Part shown: piece by piece, positions 10,207 through 40,300 of the stretch
Layout of the letters: each line of letters opens with the position of its first letter
Numbering within the stretch: position 1 is the stretch's first letter
Sequence record: OR769032.1
Reading direction: 5' to 3' (one strand)
Length of the DNA: 64,000 nucleotides
Source of the DNA: Escherichia phage JoYop
Notes under the pieces: model-generated
Seen by the model: only the letters and a program-made list of their open reading frames with translations
What the model was told of the DNA's origin: nothing
Database searches by the model: none
Translations under genes and position numbers: made by a program

Positions 10207-10677
10207 TTAATCATGTTTCCACACCCCATCGGTATTTGACCAAAGTCGCTGATTATCTGATCCTCGCCACAGCTTTTTGGTAGGAAGATTTTTCTCATAC
10301 TTCCCATCAATAATAACATCAACATATTTAAGCATTTCTAGTTGTTTAATATCTTCAAACTTATACCCTGTCCACAACCAAATGCTTTTATTGGGATAAA
10401 GATTTTTAATAGTTTGTACCACAGAGTGAATCACGTCTCTGTTATCAGGATAGAGAGGGTCTCCTCCAGTTATAGTTAATCCTTCTATATAATCATTATT
10501 CAAACATTCAATTAATTGTTCTAGTGTTTCACCAGTGAATGGAATACCGTTTCTAGCATTCCATGTTGATTTATTATAACACCCTTCGCATTTATGCAAA
10601 CATCCAGTAACAAAAAGAACGGTCCTGCACCCAGGACCATTAACAAAATCACAAGGATAAATTCTATCGTAATTCAT
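10207..10677 (-). CDS. nrdG: Anaerobic ribonucleotide reductase activating protein NrdG (radical SAM)
   Basis: 156 aa; cysteine cluster CDFVNGPGCRTVLFVTGCLHKCEGC; directly downstream of nrdD. Confidence 0.85.
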   Translation of the reverse strand: MNYDRIYPCDFVNGPGCRTVLFVTGCLHKCEGCYNKSTWNARNGIPFTGETLEQLIECLNNDYIEGLTITGGDPLYPDNRDVIHSVVQTIKNLYPNKSIWLWTGYKFEDIKQLEMLKYVDVIIDGKYEKNLPTKKLWRGSDNQRLWSNTDGVWKHD

Positions 10678-12491
10678 TGATGCTTAACCCTATGCATGAT
10701 TTCTTTATTTTTGCCGAGATTAAATCCGCGTTCATTCGGATTTCCCAAATAGCCGCATGTTCTTCTTATGGTATTCATCTTTTTAGGATCAGTTTCTCCA
10801 CAAATAGAACAAACAAATCCATTTTCAGTCGGAGTCATTTCATGGGTACTTCCGCATGTAAAACACTTATCTACTGGCATGTTAACACCAAAATAATCTA
10901 AATGCTGTGCAGCATAATCCCATACAGCCTCAAGACCTTTTAGGTTGTTTTTCATATCAGGAAGTTCAACATAAGAAATGTGACCACCTGTCGCAATGAA
11001 ATGATATGGTGCTTCACGAGAAATCTTTTCAAACGGAGTAATATTTTCTTCTACTGAAACATGGAAACTGTTAGTGTACCATCCTTTATCAGTAACATCC
11101 TTTACACTTCCATATTTTTCGGTATCGAGTTTACAGAAGCGATAACAAAGGTTTTCAGCAGGAGTAGAATACAAGCTAAAAGCAAATCCGGTTCTTTCTG
11201 TCCACTGCTTAAGACGAGCATTCATTTTAGTTAAAATTTCTTGTCCAATATCACGACCAACAAGAATATTCAATTCGTGAATACCAATGTATCCTAGGGA
11301 CACTGAACTTCTACCGTTTTTAAATAACTCAATTATATCGTCATCAGGTTTAAGACGAACCCCGAATGCACCTTCTTGGTAAAGAATAGGAGCAACAGTC
11401 GCTTTAACTCCTTTTAAGGAACTAATTCTACACATCAATGCTTCAAAACACAAATCCATTCGCTCATTGAATAATTCGGCAAATTTCTGTTCATTGAACT
11501 GTGTTCCAATATAAGAATCTAGCGCAATGCGAGGAAGATTCAGTGTTACAACACCAAGATTATTACGTCCATCAAGAATTTCATTACCAGTCGAATCTTT
11601 CCATACACTCAAGAAACTGCGGCAACCCATCGGAGAAACAGGAATAGATGAACCGGTGATAGCTTTATTATTCTTAGCTGAAATAATATCAGGATACATC
11701 CTTTTGCTTGCGCACTCTAGAGCAAGCTGCTTAATATCATAGTTCGGATCGTCTTTGTAAAGATTAACGCCTTCTTCGACGAACATAACAAGCTTAGGAA
11801 AAATAGGAGTTATCCCATCACGACCAAGACCTTTAATACGATTTTTCAGAATTGCTTTCTGAATCATTCGTTCAGTCCAGTCAGTTCCCGTACCAAATGT
11901 AATTGTTACAAAAGGCGTTTGCCCGTTTGAACTAAAGAGAGTATTTACTTCATATTCATAAGCTTGGAATGCATCGTATACGTCTTTTTCTGTTTTAGAT
12001 TGAGCATAATTCAACGCATCAGCGATTTGCCATTTTTCTGCATCCTCGATATGTTTTGCATAGGTGCGTTTAACATAAGGAGAAAGTACTTTATCTACAT
12101 TCGCAAAAGTCGTTCCGCCATATTGATGAGAAGCAACTTGTGCAGTAATTTGTGCCATAATTGCAGTAGCAACGCCAATTGATTTAGGAGTTTCAATCTG
12201 CGCATTACCAAGCTTAAATCCATTCTCAAGCATTCCTTTTAAATCTACTAAACAGCAATTAGTAAATGGAAGAGCAGGTGAATAATCAATATCATGAAAA
12301 TGGATAATTCCGCTTTCATGCGCTTTCATAATAAAAGACGGGACCATATTTTTGGCAATGTGTTTAGACACAATACCAGCCATAAGGTCCCGTTGAGTTG
12401 GAAAAACACGAGAATCTTTATTAGCATTCTCGTTTAAAAGGTCTTTATTAGTTTTATGAATTAATCCTTCAATTTCTTTTTCAATTGTCAT
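10674..12491 (-). CDS. nrdD: Anaerobic ribonucleoside-triphosphate reductase NrdD
   Basis: 605 aa; C-terminal glycyl-radical motif RRTCGYLG and Cys-rich zinc site CFTCGS...CSIC; single uninterrupted ORF. Confidence 0.9.
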   Translation of the reverse strand: MTIEKEIEGLIHKTNKDLLNENANKDSRVFPTQRDLMAGIVSKHIAKNMVPSFIMKAHESGIIHFHDIDYSPALPFTNCCLVDLKGMLENGFKLGNAQIETPKSIGVATAIMAQITAQVASHQYGGTTFANVDKVLSPYVKRTYAKHIEDAEKWQIADALNYAQSKTEKDVYDAFQAYEYEVNTLFSSNGQTPFVTITFGTGTDWTERMIQKAILKNRIKGLGRDGITPIFPKLVMFVEEGVNLYKDDPNYDIKQLALECASKRMYPDIISAKNNKAITGSSIPVSPMGCRSFLSVWKDSTGNEILDGRNNLGVVTLNLPRIALDSYIGTQFNEQKFAELFNERMDLCFEALMCRISSLKGVKATVAPILYQEGAFGVRLKPDDDIIELFKNGRSSVSLGYIGIHELNILVGRDIGQEILTKMNARLKQWTERTGFAFSLYSTPAENLCYRFCKLDTEKYGSVKDVTDKGWYTNSFHVSVEENITPFEKISREAPYHFIATGGHISYVELPDMKNNLKGLEAVWDYAAQHLDYFGVNMPVDKCFTCGSTHEMTPTENGFVCSICGETDPKKMNTIRRTCGYLGNPNERGFNLGKNKEIMHRVKHQ

Positions 12492-30019: not shown

Positions 30020-30298
30020 TTATTCTTTAAATCTGATCAATTTATTCATAGACTTTGAAACTTCTGCACGAACCTCATGCAGATTTTTGAGCTGTTCAAG
30101 ACGCTGCGTATAGTAAGCAATTTCATCTTCTTCAAGACAGTCCTGCGAATCTTCTTTAAGATAGCGTGCATAATCCTGGAAAGCATTACGAATTACTTCT
30201 TGGAAGTCATCAAGACTTTGAATTTTCTTAGGAGCGGCAGATACACGACGAGGTGCAGTATAATACTCATAACCAAACCCTGCGCTTAATTGAGCCAT
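30020..30298 (-). CDS. hypothetical protein
   Basis: Track start GTG; ATG at 30298 in TAATG overlap with upstream gene. Confidence 0.4.
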
Positions 30299-30564
30299 TA
30301 GTATTTTTCCTCTGGTTGGAACACAGCACGGCAAGCCCACATACTTGCTTCTTTGAGTTTCGTTTTAGCAATAGTTAACTGATCGAGGCTTTCGGCGTAA
30401 TTCTTCGCGAGTTCATCATCTTCACAGCTATCAAATGCTTCCCAAAATTCATCGTATAAAGCATCAAAGATAAGTCCTAAACGAACTTCAGCGTCTTTGA
30501 TAGCATTTACTTTACCGATTTTTTCGTCGGTATGTGGCTTATAACCTTTAATATCTTCAATCAT
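30298..30564 (-). CDS. hypothetical acidic protein
   Basis: Track start TTG; ATG at 30564 with GAGGAAG SD. Confidence 0.4.
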
Positions 30565-30778
30565 ATTTGACTTCCTCACCAGTGCATAAATCGTATTCAA
30601 CTAAACGAATAGGTTCATGAATGCCATATCCTTGAACAGATATTTCTGTCGTAGGATAAATTCCATCAATATCACCCATATTCCACGCTTCATTAAATTG
30701 CTGTTCGCCTGAATTACTAAACCACTCGGCGAAAGCATTTAGCACATCTTTAGAACCTTCAATAATTATCTTTGCCAT
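30557..30778 (-). CDS. hypothetical protein
   Basis: 73-aa ORF, ATG start. Confidence 0.4.
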   Translation of the reverse strand: MAKIIIEGSKDVLNAFAEWFSNSGEQQFNEAWNMGDIDGIYPTTEISVQGYGIHEPIRLVEYDLCTGEEVKYD

Positions 30779-31140
30779 TACAGACTCTCGGTAAAGGTAC
30801 GAGCGATAACGTCGCGCTGCTGTTCCGGAGTCAGAGAGTTAAAGCGAACTGCATAACCTGATACACGGATGGTCAGCTGCGGATATTTTTCCGGATGCTT
30901 AACTGCATCTTCCAGAGTTTCACGACGCAGAACGTTAACGTTCAGGTGCTGACCACCTTCAATTTTAACTGTAGGCTGTGGCTCAATTTCAATTTCACGG
31001 GCATGCAAACCATAGAAAATTTCTGGGTCTACAAAAGAGTCCTCTTTAAAGGTTTTAGAAACGATAATTCGTGCTTGAATACCATCTTCAAAATAAATAG
31101 TACCTTTGTGCGTGCCTTCAAGAATTTGATATGCTTTCAT
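30778..31140 (-). CDS. Autonomous glycyl radical cofactor GrcA/YfiD-like protein
   Basis: 120 aa; C-terminal half [61 protein letters not shown] is the pyruvate formate-lyase glycyl-radical domain signature (RVSGY). Confidence 0.8.
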
Positions 31141-31147
31141 ATAAACC

Positions 31148-31477
31148 TCAATTAGAAAATAAATTTATCCAAGATTGTTCTTTAATTAAAAATGGCTCAG
31201 AATCATATGCCATTAAACTCTGGGTAATTAATCCTTTAAATGGTCCATCAATAAATTCCATTGTAAAATATGGAATTTTATTCATTAACCGTGCATTAGG
31301 AGCAGTGCACAAAACTCTGCATCCTTTGAATACGCCTTTCTGCAATTTATACTGCTTAGGATAAAATTCGCTCAAAATGTTGTTATTTGCCAAAATTTCA
31401 AAATGATTCACCAATTTATTTTTAATAGTTTTTGGCGAAAAATAAAGATATTCGAAAAGCTGTGCATCTGTCATCAT
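31148..31477 (-). CDS. hypothetical protein
   Basis: ATG at 31477 in overlapping ATGATGA junction. Confidence 0.4.
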
Positions 31478-32061
31478 TGCATTCCGATTACGAAAAACTG
31501 TGGACGAGTAATACCACCAATGCAGCATTTACTTTTACAGCAATGTTGCACAGTGTCAATATGAATGTCGTAAATCTTATCCATATCAGGAGATTTAACG
31601 GGCTCATCAATTATATACAAAATTCGTGAAAGCGATAAACCTCTGAACTTGCTTCCTTTATTACCAATAAAACTGCGCACAGAATCAGTAAATAAACGAA
31701 AACGTATATCATCGTTAGAATAACGCGAAAATTCCTTTTTAATGTTATTTGCAGAAATTTTAGCGTAAGCTGAAGTATTAGAAAGAACAATAACTGTTCC
31801 GCCATCATACAACCAATTGGCAGCAAAATTAGTCACAGCAATTGATTTACCGGATTGACGTCCACCGTCAAGTCGAAGTGTGCAGTACTGTTTAAGTAAG
31901 TCTTCAAATGGCGGGATATATTCGTTTTTACAAATTTCTTCTACTCTAGCATCAGAATGGTGTGTAAAAGCATTCATCAGGGATAGATAAGGACCAGTCA
32001 AAAATGTTCTCATTTTGTTCTCTCTAGATTTGGGCCATTCCATGGCGCATGAATTGTCCAT
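31474..32061 (-). CDS. hypothetical protein with P-loop-like motif
   Basis: 195 aa; GGRQSGKS resembles a Walker A; ATG start. Confidence 0.45.
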   Translation of the reverse strand: MDNSCAMEWPKSRENKMRTFLTGPYLSLMNAFTHHSDARVEEICKNEYIPPFEDLLKQYCTLRLDGGRQSGKSIAVTNFAANWLYDGGTVIVLSNTSAYAKISANNIKKEFSRYSNDDIRFRLFTDSVRSFIGNKGSKFRGLSLSRILYIIDEPVKSPDMDKIYDIHIDTVQHCCKSKCCIGGITRPQFFVIGMQ

Positions 32062-32093: not shown

Positions 32094-32123
32094 ATACTAT
32101 CACAATTCTAGGAGAAAGTAAAC
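32094..32123 (-). promoter_or_regulatory. T4-type early promoter
   Basis: Minus strand GTTTACT-(18 nt)-TGA-TAGTAT. Confidence 0.45.
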
Positions 32124-32125
32124 TG

Positions 32126-32428
32126 TTATTTACCTTTAATTACTTTAGCTGCTTCGATAGCCGCTTGCTGAAGGTCATCCATAGACATACCGAATTTAGA
32201 AGCAAAGTTATCAATTTTCTTTTCGACAGCATTCAAAGGCTTGGCCTGTTTACCTTCATTAGCGCCAGGAAGAGCGAGAATACGCTCTTTGTCAATATAA
32301 AGGCTTACAAGTTTCTTACGGTCTTTATCGGACAAATCATGAAATGAATGGGCCTTTTTATTTATAGCGGCTTCTAATTTACCTGCACTCACTCGCGCTT
32401 CAGTAATAAATTCTTGATAGGTTTTCAT
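32126..32428 (-). CDS. ipII: Internal protein II (capsid-targeted)
   Basis: 100 aa starting MKTYQEFITEARVSAGKLEAA, the capsid targeting sequence shared by T4 internal proteins. Confidence 0.7.
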   Translation of the reverse strand: MKTYQEFITEARVSAGKLEAAINKKAHSFHDLSDKDRKKLVSLYIDKERILALPGANEGKQAKPLNAVEKKIDNFASKFGMSMDDLQQAAIEAAKVIKGK

Positions 32429-32468
32429 ATGTTTCCTTTAATGTAAATAGATTTGAGTATTCGTTTTA

Positions 32469-33047
32469 TTAGGAATTACGGGCTGCATTAGCAACGGCGT
32501 AAGCGTACTGAATATTGACGTCTTTAAACGTACCTTTGGAGGTATCTATTTCTGCCTTAAAGCCGCCTTTAGTCATAACATCGGCAAATTCTTTACGGAA
32601 AGCCATTGCATCAAGACCTTTCCATGATGATTTATGCTTAGCAAATTCAAGACCAGCGTAGTTGACAGCCTTAGCTAATTTATTATCAATAACCCATTTA
32701 CCGGCTTTAGGTACAAACACTGGGCCTTTCTGTTTAGAGAATAGTTTTAAATTCCAACGACGAAGGTCACCGTCAGCTTTAACAAAAGCTGCGTCCAAGT
32801 TACTAGCAACAACATCTTGAATATGGCCAAATTTAAGCCCATCAACTTCAATATTTAGATCAGTACGCCAGCGAAGTCCTTCCCAAGCGAAAGCTTTAAA
32901 GTCAGAAGCTTTTGTAGCTAAGTACCGTTCAATAGGAGCCGTTTTAGGGTCAAAGCCGTTTCCCGATCGATAGGTCCACTCATCTTTATTAATGCCTTTG
33001 GCCTTTTCCACAGAAGCTTCAGCGATAAATTCTTTATACGTTTTCAT
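32469..33047 (-). CDS. ipIII: Internal protein III (capsid-targeted)
   Basis: 192 aa starting MKTYKEFIAEASVEKAK; size matches T4 IPIII. Confidence 0.65.
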   Translation of the reverse strand: MKTYKEFIAEASVEKAKGINKDEWTYRSGNGFDPKTAPIERYLATKASDFKAFAWEGLRWRTDLNIEVDGLKFGHIQDVVASNLDAAFVKADGDLRRWNLKLFSKQKGPVFVPKAGKWVIDNKLAKAVNYAGLEFAKHKSSWKGLDAMAFRKEFADVMTKGGFKAEIDTSKGTFKDVNIQYAYAVANAARNS

Positions 33048-33075
33048 GTGTTTCCTTGTTTGTTTTGATAGAGTA

Positions 33076-33105
33076 ATTATACCATATTAATACTTAAGCG
33101 TAAAC
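33076..33105 (-). promoter_or_regulatory. T4-type early promoter
   Basis: Minus strand GTTTAC-(18 nt)-TGG-TATAAT. Confidence 0.55.
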
Positions 33106-33108
33106 TGT

Positions 33109-33369
33109 TTAAGCTTTACCGCCAGAAATAATTCCGAAGTTGTTAAAATCGTATCCAATATCGTCAACATCTACTTTAGGGCTTGCTACAACATAAGCAA
33201 TTTCACTACGTTTTGCATAGGTGTTTATTTCTTTACCATCACCGCCTAGGAAAGAATACCCATTACGTTTTAATGAGCCAAAGTCTTCCGCATCACCAAT
33301 GAAAGCTTTAACTTTAAATTTAGGACCTTTGGCATCTGCTTCAGTGATAAATTCTTGATACATTTTCAT
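33109..33369 (-). CDS. additional internal-protein-like gene with CTS
   Basis: 86 aa starting MKMYQEFITEADAKG. Confidence 0.5.
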   Translation of the reverse strand: MKMYQEFITEADAKGPKFKVKAFIGDAEDFGSLKRNGYSFLGGDGKEINTYAKRSEIAYVVASPKVDVDDIGYDFNNFGIISGGKA

Positions 33370-33375
33370 TTTTCC

Positions 33376-33789
33376 TTAGTAAATTGATTTACCATAGTAT
33401 TTGTACCAAGTAGGACGTTGAGCAATTTTTTCGTCTAAGCGTGCTTGACTTATCGCAATGGACGCTTCGGACGGGACATAATTATTACGAAATTCGGCAG
33501 GGATGTCAGAAATATCCTGGACAGATGTGTCCTTGATTTTGAAACCACGTTTCAAGCATTCGGCGATTAGCTCGATTTGACGTAAACGTAAAAATTCAAG
33601 TTTGTCGTAAAAGAATGTTACATGACCTGTGCCTAAGATAAATGTTGGAGAGATTTTAAAATCCTTTACACGTTTACCGTTTTGAACATGTTTACGGACT
33701 GCACCAAATACGCGTGGTAATTCACGATACTCAGCCATAAGATGTTGGTCGGTCAGTTCAGAAACAAGTGTTAAATTGATACGAGTCAT
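33376..33789 (-). CDS. denV: Endonuclease V (pyrimidine dimer DNA glycosylase) DenV
   Basis: Track start is TTG; from ATG at 33789 the protein reads [35 protein letters not shown]..., recognised as T4 endo V. Confidence 0.9.
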
Positions 33790-33816
33790 AATTTCCTCCA
33801 AGTAGTTGATGAATGT

Positions 33817-33846
33817 ATAGTATCAAAGTCCTTGGAGGAAGTAAAC
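33817..33846 (-). promoter_or_regulatory. T4-type early promoter
   Basis: Minus strand GTTTACT-(18 nt)-TGA-TACTAT. Confidence 0.5.
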
Positions 33847-33847
33847 A

Positions 33848-34129
33848 CTATTTTTCTGAAGCGCCTGAAATATATTTTTCAAGACGTTGTTTCATCAGCG
33901 AGCCGTTCTTAGCGATTTCTTCCGGTTTATCGCACATACGCAACAAAGCTTCAAGCTTAACGATATCACTGGTACGTTCAAATTTGCGAGTATCTATCTT
34001 ACTAGCAAGTTCAGAAATACGTGCTAATAGACTTTCGGCTTCAACCAAAGCTGCACCTAGCTTAGTTGCAAATGTGTCAGTAGCTTCGTTAAGAATAGAT
34101 TCTGATAAAAATTCACTATATGTTTTCAT
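33848..34129 (-). CDS. additional internal-protein-like gene with CTS
   Basis: Track start TTG; ATG at 34129 in ATGA overlap with lysozyme stop; protein starts [16 protein letters not shown]. Confidence 0.5.
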
Positions 34130-34614
34130 ATATACGCTTTCCAAGTTCCTGTTTTAAATGTTGAGATTACGCGTTTCGCGCGATTAGGTGTCTGACGGTA
34201 CCATTTAGATTGGGCTAGATTTACTGCCGCTTCATCCCAACGTTTCTGTTGAAGCATACGAAGAGAATTAGTAAAACCAGCGACGCCTGCTACACCCATT
34301 TGGAAGACCATATTGACCAACGCACATCGACGAACTGCATCTAAAGAATCATATACCGGTTTAAGTTTAGCATTACCCAAGATTCCGCGAACGGCTTTAT
34401 CAACGTCTTCATTAAATAGCTTTTCAGCCTCATCAAGGGTAATTGTACCGTTGCATTTACGTCCGATCATTCTGTCAAGTTCAGCTTTAGCTACGGCTAA
34501 AGACGGGTTCTTTGTTACTAAATGGCCTATGCCAATCGTCCAAAAGCCTTCAGTGTCTTTGTATAAAGTCAGTCTAAGACCTTCATCTATACGTAACATT
34601 TCAAATATATTCAT
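34126..34614 (-). CDS. e: Endolysin (T4 lysozyme family)
   Basis: 162 aa [32 protein letters not shown]...; catalytic E11/D20/T26 context conserved; about 85 percent identical to recalled T4 lysozyme. Confidence 0.95.
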
Positions 34615-39541: not shown

Positions 39542-39618
<77 letters not shown>

Positions 39619-39622
39619 TATT

Positions 39623-39697
39623 TGGCGGACATGCATGGATTCGAACCATGGACCAATTGATTAACAGTCAACTGCTCTACCACTGAGCTACACATCC
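39623..39697 (-). tRNA. tRNA-Asn (anticodon GUU)
   Basis: Hand-folded: GGATGTG acceptor, D-arm GCTCAGTGGTAGAGC, anticodon loop CUGUUAA, T-loop TTCGAAT, CCA encoded. Confidence 0.65.
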
Positions 39698-39701
39698 AAA
39701 T

Positions 39702-39788
39702 TGGTGGGGAGTGATGGAGTCGAACCACCCGAGTCGCAATGACAATGGATTTACAGTCCACACCGCTACCTCTACGGGATAACTCCCC
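39702..39788 (-). tRNA. tRNA-Tyr (anticodon GUA), long variable arm
   Basis: 87 nt; anticodon stem-loop GTGGA-CUGUAAA-TCCAT; variable arm resembles bacterial tRNA-Tyr; D-arm fold less clean. Confidence 0.55.
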
Positions 39789-39801
39789 TTAATTCTTAAT
39801 T

Positions 39802-39876
39802 TGGTGGCCCTGGGTGGAATTGAACCACCATCTGGCGATTATGAGTCGCTTGCTTGAACCTTCCAGCTACAGGGCC
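39802..39876 (-). tRNA. tRNA with CAU anticodon (Ile2/lysidine-type or Met)
   Basis: Hand-folded: acceptor GGCCCTG, anticodon loop CUCAUAA; T4 has a CAU tRNA read as Ile. Confidence 0.6.
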
Positions 39877-39877
39877 T

Positions 39878-39953
39878 TGGTGCTGATTGACGGAATCGAA
39901 CCGCCGACCTTCTCATTACAAGTGAGTTGCTCTACCTACTGAGCTAAATCAGC
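39878..39953 (-). tRNA. tRNA-Thr (anticodon UGU)
   Basis: Hand-folded: D-arm GCTCAGTAGGTAGAGC, anticodon loop CUUGUAA. Confidence 0.65.
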
Positions 39954-39958
39954 AAAAC

Positions 39959-40048
39959 TGGCGGAGGCGATAGGATTTGAACCTATGAGTCGCCGGAGCG
40001 ACTGCCGGTTTTCAAGACCGGTGCATTAAACCACTCTGCCACGCCTCC
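39959..40048 (-). tRNA. tRNA-Ser (anticodon UGA), long variable arm
   Basis: 90 nt; anticodon stem-loop CCGGT-CUUGAAA-ACCGG. Confidence 0.65.
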
Positions 40049-40050
40049 AG

Positions 40051-40124
40051 TCTCCATACAAGGATTTGAACCTTGGACCTCCTGATCCCAAATCAGGCGC
40101 TCTACCAAACTGAGCTACACGGAG
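40051..40124 (-). tRNA. tRNA-Pro (anticodon UGG)
   Basis: Hand-folded: anticodon stem-loop CCTGA-UUUGGGA-TCAGG; CCA not encoded. Confidence 0.65.
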
Positions 40125-40134
40125 TAAATTAAAT

Positions 40135-40208
<74 letters not shown>

Positions 40209-40213
40209 AAATT

Positions 40214-40300
40214 TGGTGCGAGAAGTGGGACTCGAACCCACAAGGAAATCATTCCGCAGCATTTTAAGTGCTGTGCCTTTACCAATTTGACCATTCTCGC
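40214..40300 (-). tRNA. tRNA-Leu (anticodon UAA), long variable arm
   Basis: 87 nt; anticodon stem-loop CAGCA-CUUAAAA-TGCTG; T-arm GTGGG-TTCGAGT-CCCAC. Confidence 0.65.

Follow-up and report, generated by a model that had tools for sequence, protein, structure and literature searches.

Oxygen cleaves pyruvate formate-lyase (PFL) at Gly734, and PMC8683613 describes how a small protein, YfiD (GrcA) in E. coli or Y06I in phage T4, binds the cleaved enzyme and receives a radical, such that activity returns. T4 Y06I is one of only two validated spare-part proteins of this kind (Wagner 2001, cited in PMC8683613): PFL-activase (PFL-AE) radicalizes it, and the activity of oxygen-cleaved PFL is restored in vitro. 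For the evolutionary side of the present case the relevant precedent is psbA of marine cyanophages, where host and phage copies have recombined within the gene (Sullivan et al. 2006, PMC1484495). Here we analyze a gene of Escherichia phage JoYop, found in a 64,000-nucleotide stretch of sequence record OR769032.1 (this whole stretch is referred to as the window). It occupies 30778..31140 on the minus strand, has an ATG start and a TAA stop, and encodes a GrcA/YfiD homologue of 120 residues. Very probably it is the vs.6/Y06I spare part, an old phage gene whose radical-carrying half has been overwritten by host grcA at least twice.

Identity of the JoYop gene

The predicted protein is 100% identical to T4 Y06I, with which it also shares the neighbouring genes vs.7 and vs.5, and PHROG 1209 matches it over its full length (E=1.2e-62, positions 1-120 of 121). 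The Pfam Gly_radical domain (PF01228) falls on residues 61-101 with 66.8 bits against a cut-off of 22.2 (E=2.8e-18), and the top solved structure is that of E. coli YfiD/GrcA (6OWR, E=8.6e-42, residues 22-120 aligned), followed by residues 697-759 of PFL (E=5e-26). The glycyl-radical motif lies at residues 92-108, with the RVSGYAV fingerprint at 92-98. From the position of the motif and the alignment to 6OWR and PFL 697-759, the radical glycine is predicted to be Gly95 (GGT codon, 30856..30858, minus strand), the equivalent of GrcA Gly102 and PflB Gly734; PMC8683613 describes the radical role of this glycine in the PFL/YfiD system. A single-sequence AlphaFold2 model of vs.6 was unusable (mean predicted local distance difference test score 34.9).

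These results agree with an earlier sequence-only reading, made from the letters of the window without database searches, which had proposed a GrcA/YfiD gene at this exact open reading frame (ORF) with an enterobacterial C-terminal end and a differing N-terminal half, and had pointed out that a T4 homologue is already described. Residues 61-120 in fact coincide with residues 68-127 of E. coli GrcA at every position, while the N-terminal half shows only ∼30% amino acid identity. As a small stand-alone protein without a catalytic barrel, vs.6 has the size (∼14 kDa in this family) and domain content of GrcA/YfiD and not those of a full PFL/TdcE enzyme, with its ∼760-residue barrel and active-site Cys-Cys pair. 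Only the last ∼63 PFL residues are matched, the PFL model TIGR01255 aligning at positions 680-744 with 88.9 bits against a cut-off of 994, and although the last 60 residues of vs.6 are 80% and 78% identical to the C-terminal domains of PflB and TdcE, respectively, the barrel and Cys418/Cys419 are absent. Functional membership in the GrcA/YfiD family rests on the cited biochemistry.

The gene is widespread. Its nucleotide sequence was found by megablast in 756 phage records, 744 of them full-length, with a best match of 98.9%, and tblastn found homologues in 1591 phage records, including T4-like genera, T5-like phages, jumbo Asteriusvirus and Aeromonas phages. RB32 and RB69 annotate it as vs.6, between vs.7 and vs.5, and the order vs.7-vs.6-vs.5 is kept in RB32, RB69 and the Jiaodaviruses. 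Nolan et al. 2006 (PMC1524935) counted vs.6 as one of 11 conserved T4 ORFs and tentatively proposed that it acts in nucleotide metabolism. The vs.6/Y06I gene and its biochemistry are thus already known, and the gene itself adds nothing new; what follows concerns its DNA.

A host-identical tract inside a phage gene

Nucleotide alignment with the host genes had been put forward as the check on the sequence-only reading, with weak similarity to GrcA as the outcome that would speak against it, and the similarity proved to be strong. At 30778..30962 on the minus strand, 181 of 185 nt are the same as nt 200-384 of the E. coli grcA coding sequence, which encode residues 61-120 of vs.6 and the stop codon, and all four differences from that gene (L001) are synonymous. 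Three of the four sit in the last 13 nt (30784..30790, minus strand; ACC GAG AGT in the phage against ACT GAA AGC in E. coli), and the core of the tract at 30791-30962 holds a single synonymous difference, at Ser94 (TCA versus TCC, window position 30859). No nucleotide similarity between vs.6 and E. coli grcA was found in the 5′ half or beyond the stop codon. Since identity in the tract is 97.8% to grcA but only 79.2% to pflB and 73.2% to tdcE, grcA is the donor, and the other two genes were rejected. The longest exact run between the window and an O157 grcA allele is 103 nt, and all 5426 complete E. coli genomes contain a matching tract at 95-99% identity. Within a 24.9-kb chunk around vs.6, megablast detects similarity to E. 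coli chromosomes nowhere but in the tract: the whole chunk matches 10833 chromosomal places, exactly as many as the tract used alone as a query.

The left edge of this similarity is abrupt. A maximum chi-square test placed a breakpoint just before codon 61, where identity jumps from 49% on the left side to 97.8% on the right side; none of 2000 permutations reached the observed value (0/2000). The patch starts at the equivalent of GrcA residue 68, a few residues into the structured domain (61-127). Composition also shifts within the gene: the GC content is 51% in the tract and 35% in both the 5′ half and the whole window, and the GC content at third codon positions (GC3) rises from 0.23 in the 5′ half to 0.45 in the tract, the value that E. 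coli grcA also has. An abrupt identity breakpoint combined with a compositional jump inside a single gene is the signature of a psbA-type mosaic. At the other end, the GAG and AGT states also occur in phage lineages lacking a host-like tract, so that the last ∼10 nt are phage-ancestral and the host-type sequence has phage-ancestral DNA on either side. The vs.6 mosaic is an internal patch of ∼170-185 nt in an older, diverged phage grcA-like gene. The suggestion of the sequence-only reading that the gene was acquired from the host consequently stands for the C-terminal half, which is host-derived and recent, and has to be narrowed from the capture of a whole gene to the replacement of a part.

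Sequence identity alone gives no direction, so the enterobacterial grcA 3′ halves could in principle have come from T4-like phages. However, the tract has host-like composition compared with the adjacent phage DNA and the window as a whole, the 5′ and 3′ halves of E. coli grcA diverge congruently from those of Citrobacter, Salmonella and Klebsiella, and every one of the 5426 E. coli genomes has grcA at the ung-grcA-eamB locus. Because of this host composition and the congruent divergence of the two host gene halves, we give transfer from phage to host almost no credence. An artefact of assembly or contamination deserves even less: the same junction recurs in more than 740 independent phage records as well as in IMG/VR contigs, which by itself is enough to exclude it, and the ORF is intact and in frame with phage-specific states retained at its 3′ end.

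Another alternative is a single old capture of a complete grcA, after which the disordered N-terminal half drifted while purifying selection held the C-terminal half, with no later exchange. The phage and host N-terminal halves are indeed homologous, and the C-terminal 60 residues can be invariant even at synonymous saturation: in Slopekvirus, 60/60 residues encoded by the tract agree with E. coli GrcA, with nonsynonymous divergence (dN) of 0 and synonymous divergence (dS) of 2.3. In JoYop, however, dS to E. coli in the tract is 0.094, GC3 equals that of the host, and exact runs with host grcA reach 103-175 nt among the phages, while Klebsiella phages hold Klebsiella-specific synonymous and nonsynonymous states. 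Since selection at the protein level cannot hold synonymous sites, a single old capture is highly improbable. Comparison with RB69 shows the same partition of the gene, with dS of 0.68 in the 5′ half and 0.12 in the tract, and a sliding identity that rises from 85-88% across the 5′ half to 97-98% across the tract and drops to 68-75% within vs.5.

The 5′ half itself (30963..31140, minus strand; residues 1-60) is phage-type and anciently diverged from the N-terminal half of host GrcA. Comparison of phage and host profiles of these halves with hhalign gave a probability of 93% (E=2.9e-7) with 30% identity over 47 columns, and the phage version is 7 residues shorter. Against the PDB, the N-terminal 60 residues returned a chance match only (phmmer, E=1.6). 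Among themselves, the N-terminal halves of the T4-like vs.6 proteins are conserved, and with dN of 0.048 against the dS of 0.68 to RB69 (dN/dS about 0.07), the 5′ half is under purifying selection among phages. In YfiD the corresponding residues 1-60 are disordered, yet needed for binding of cleaved PFL and for efficient activation, according to PMC8683613. The purifying selection on the phage-specific half suggests that it does more than serve as a disordered linker.

Two further elements lie at the left edge of the tract. A perfect 14-bp palindrome, GAACGTTAACGTTC, occupies 30930-30943 and encodes LNVNVL, and a hairpin with a 5-bp stem adjoins it at 30944-30958; E. coli grcA has the two elements as well.

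Host-type tracts across phage lineages

The tract was compared across 82 enterobacterial and Pasteurellaceae grcA genes, 14 phage loci and 80 IMG/VR loci; the host panel was without Aeromonas, Morganella and Proteus, and its K. pneumoniae grcA came from a chromosome-like PLSDB record. For Tequatrovirus and Mosigvirus tracts, identity is 94.5-98.4% with Escherichia grcA, ∼92% with that of Citrobacter and 84-88% with that of K. pneumoniae, and the longest exact run, between a T4-like IMG/VR contig (L098) and E. coli SK1144, spans 175 nt. In the Jiaodaviruses (Roth20, PSE-D1 and the KPV15-like L121), vs.6 sits in the same context as in the T4-like coliphages and its tract shows 91-97% identity with K. 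pneumoniae grcA, against 85-87% with the E. coli gene. These tracts carry the Klebsiella-specific residues ETLLDAVEH, and the longest exact run between L121 and K. pneumoniae grcA is 140 nt. At the level of whole databases, K. pneumoniae grcA has matches of 95-99% in 77 phage records, covering coding-sequence nt 199/202-374, and every one of these records is from a Klebsiella or Raoultella phage. Matches to E. coli grcA, present in 752 records, start at nt 200, and both sets thus have one left edge in common. In a neighbour-joining tree of the tract, the E. coli phages are nested in Escherichia (bootstrap 97%) and the Jiaodaviruses group with K. pneumoniae (bootstrap 84%), such that the patch clusters with its own host genus independently in different phage lineages. 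The radical half has been replaced at the same position separately, from Escherichia into Tequatroviruses and Mosigviruses and from Klebsiella into Jiaodaviruses.

Other lineages show no such relationship. None of the 82 host grcA genes exceeds 84% identity to the tracts of Slopekvirus, Pseudotevenvirus, Krischvirus, T5-like, Asteriusvirus and Aeromonas phages, and exact runs with host grcA in these unconverted lineages do not exceed 20 nt; host tracking by them was ruled out by the low identity and short runs. In Slopekvirus, Pseudotevenvirus, Krischvirus and the T5-like phages, the protein is preserved while synonymous sites have reached saturation.

Several points weigh against our reading of vs.6 as a spare-part gene that has been overwritten at least twice by host grcA. 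Krischvirus (76%) and T5-like (72%) phages infect E. coli, yet their tracts are unconverted. Tequatroviruses isolated on Yersinia, Hafnia, Proteus and Pseudomonas keep an E. coli-type tract, and therefore the tract reflects lineage history and not every host encounter. The documented donor genera are two only, and spread from phage to phage after one transfer per genus has to be allowed for. On the functional side, the NCBIfam GrcA equivalog TIGR04365 scores vs.6 at 153.3 bits, under its cut-off of 170 (the alignment spans residues 20-120, and E. coli GrcA reaches 234 bits), a shortfall due to the divergent N-terminal half. In addition, the literature searched yielded no report of an in vivo phenotype for vs.6 mutants, and the Y06I biochemistry is known second-hand, through PMC8683613.

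Some of these points would fit a more restricted history, in which exactly two rare transfers, one from Escherichia and one from Klebsiella, were followed by spread among co-infecting T4-like phages with no continuing exchange with hosts. The unconverted Krischvirus and T5-like coliphages and the E. coli-type tracts in Tequatroviruses from other hosts are both consistent with it, as is the left edge and phage-type 3′ end that JoYop and RB69 share. In contrast, phage tract alleles differ from E. coli alleles at between 0 (L098) and 7 (JK45) internal positions, and a G/A polymorphism at coding-sequence nt 192 is common to phages and E. coli alleles, which hints weakly at more than one event. We consider the two-transfer history unlikely, though a good deal less so than any of the other alternatives weighed here; the allele differences and the shared polymorphism are suggestive only of recurrent exchange. 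Alleles of the JK45 type were also considered as patchy conversions and not retained as such, since they are inseparable from GC-to-AT amelioration (5/7 changes are GC->AT).

T4 recombines efficiently with short homologous inserts, and for that reason replacement of the radical half by host fragments is plausible. Fragments of degraded host DNA would invade the homologous phage sequence by means of the T4 recombination machinery, and once a first conversion had created near-perfect homology, repeat conversions would become easier. In such a case vs.6 could be a standing hotspot, where ∼175 nt of homology lets host DNA repeatedly overwrite the radical half with the current host's allele, a proposal for which we see the chances as evenly balanced.

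Some records met during these comparisons call for comment. Several PLSDB 'plasmids' (L176, CP125156.1; L177, LR134122.1) are chromosomes or fragments of them, e.g. a 5.37-Mb K. pneumoniae record, and the grcA record of K. aerogenes NCTC10006 is frameshifted, probably by a sequencing error. A 19-kb IMG/VR contig (L124, IMGVR_UViG_2706794630_000006) encodes a full host-type GrcA (MITGIQITK...), and over the tract its nucleotide identity with grcA of Yersinia artesiana is 91%; the contig is probably host DNA or a prophage-flank contig and not a lytic-phage copy. The homologue of Morganella phage vB_Mm5 (L007, 137-1187) is annotated with 217 residues and a long N-terminal extension, and directly downstream of it lies an HNH endonuclease gene, which could promote local phage-phage gene conversion.

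Function, genomic setting and significance

The cited biochemistry would translate into a simple model of what vs.6 does during infection. Its C-terminal glycyl-radical domain would dock into oxygen-damaged host PflB, host PflA would install a new radical on Gly95, and production of acetyl-CoA and formate would then resume. Host grcA is expected to be no longer inducible once infection has shut off host genes, and because of this shut-off the phage would supply its own spare part. The phage copy could protect the PFL-dependent supply of acetyl-CoA and ATP in the micro-oxic gut and sustain fermentative energy metabolism in micro-oxic or anaerobic hosts.

The window also carries nrdD (10674-12491, minus strand; Pfam NRDD and Gly_radical) and nrdG (10207-10677, minus strand; Pfam Fer4_12/Radical_SAM), the latter encoding the activase; the sequence-only reading had noted both genes when it credited the phage with two glycyl-radical systems. 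That description fits NrdD/NrdG, which is self-contained. Y06I has neither an activase nor a catalytic partner in the window. By the literature it needs host PflA and PflB, and so it does not amount to another self-contained system. One alternative is that vs.6 serves phage NrdD or nucleotide metabolism instead of host PFL, as Nolan et al. (2006; PMC1524935) suggested. NrdD too carries a Gly_radical domain, and homologues of vs.6 lie close to these genes elsewhere: between nrdD and nrdG in Asteriusvirus UE-S1 (L009, 398-757), and directly after nrdG and before nrdC in Aeromonas phage AsFcp_4 (L012, 401-784), a linkage with anaerobic ribonucleotide reductase genes that is absent in T4-like coliphages. 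However, the radical domain of vs.6 is that of GrcA and 80% identical to the PflB C-terminus, its top structure and sequence matches are to YfiD and PFL, Y06I is reported to rescue PFL in vitro (PMC8683613), and in the window vs.6 lies 18 kb from nrdDG. Because the domain is PFL-type, we read the linkage with nrdD and nrdG as an anaerobic gene module and not as a sign of NrdD repair, and regard a role in NrdD function as very unlikely.

In JoYop, nrdD is a single uninterrupted ORF of 605 residues. The T4 reference nrdD is interrupted by a group I intron, and the tRNA set differs too, comprising in JoYop a nine-tRNA cluster at 39542-40300 (minus strand) for Arg, Asn, Tyr, Met, Thr, Ser, Pro, Gly and Leu; some plasmid records of E. 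coli show a ∼90% match to the tRNA-Tyr stretch. JoYop is therefore a T4 relative and not T4 itself.

The neighbours of vs.6 are tightly packed around it. Upstream, vs.7 (31148..31528, minus strand; PHROG 2049) ends within the GAGG Shine-Dalgarno sequence of vs.6 (31146..31149, minus strand), which lies 5 nt before the ATG and overlaps the vs.7 stop codon. Downstream, the ATG of vs.5 (30557..30778, minus strand; 73 residues, PHROG 1986) overlaps the vs.6 TAA as TAATG, an arrangement that suggests translational coupling of the two genes. A GAGAG sequence at 30785-30789 (minus strand), 6 nt upstream of the vs.5 ATG, is a putative Shine-Dalgarno sequence, and this phage-retained motif is likely the vs.5 ribosome-binding site.

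Unlike GrcA, which has the host grcA promoter, vs.6 would be expressed from a phage operon, presumably the tightly packed vs.8-vs.3 cluster as part of an early transcription unit. A scan for sigma-70 promoters and terminators returned fewer sites than shuffled sequence and none that was convincing directly upstream of vs.6. By eye, a candidate early-type promoter was noted upstream of vs.8 at 32094..32122 (minus strand; TTTACT, 17-nt spacer, TG-n-TAGTAT), with 8/12 matches and hence below the scan threshold of 9/12. At that threshold, no promoter-like site was found on the minus strand between this candidate and the regB site (30016-29988), except a weak one within a gene (31474-31445). With low confidence, we propose that the candidate may drive vs.8-vs.7-vs.6-vs.5.

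Among the other genes of this region, vs.8 (31474-32061, minus strand) contains GGRQSGKS, which resembles a P-loop motif, and matches the terminase large subunit weakly in PHROG (E=1e-5), a hint of an ATPase fold. The gene vs.4 (30298-30600, minus strand), two downstream of vs.6, has a Pfam Acb2/Tad1 hairpin domain (E=1.4e-19), a family of anti-CBASS/Thoeris nucleotide-sponge proteins. Further upstream, four minus-strand ORFs (32126-32428, 32469-33047, 33109-33369 and 33848-34144) begin with an MK(T/M)YQEFI..E-type leader, which is typical of T4 internal head proteins; together they surround denV (33376-33801) within 32126-34144, an arrangement unlike that of RB32 and RB69.

The closest analogue of the evolutionary pattern of vs.6 is psbA mosaicism. 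Like cyanophage psbA, vs.6 is a host-derived metabolic gene of T4-like phages with host-type patches in a phage-type gene. Unlike psbA, its hosts are enterobacteria, the exchange involves a single sharp ∼175-nt tract whose position two phage genera share, and the part exchanged is a radical-carrying spare part and not a photosystem core subunit. No description of the nucleotide-level mosaic in vs.6 was found in the literature searched, with key subscription papers lying outside that search, and in a gene that is already known we regard the mosaic as a modest new observation; the sharply bounded, host-genus-specific conversion tract adds moderate value. The vs.6 gene is a clean case of a virulent enterobacterial phage recombining with the host chromosome at a defined ∼175-nt site, with two host genera involved. 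If vs.6 is a hotspot as proposed, the tract would be a natural recorder of recent host history, and both the spare part and its host-optimal codons would stay matched to host PflB and PflA. If exchange is ongoing, the tract in a T4-like phage genome could indicate the genus of its recent host, and the vs.6 locus would offer a simple amplicon assay for rates of host-to-phage gene conversion in T4.

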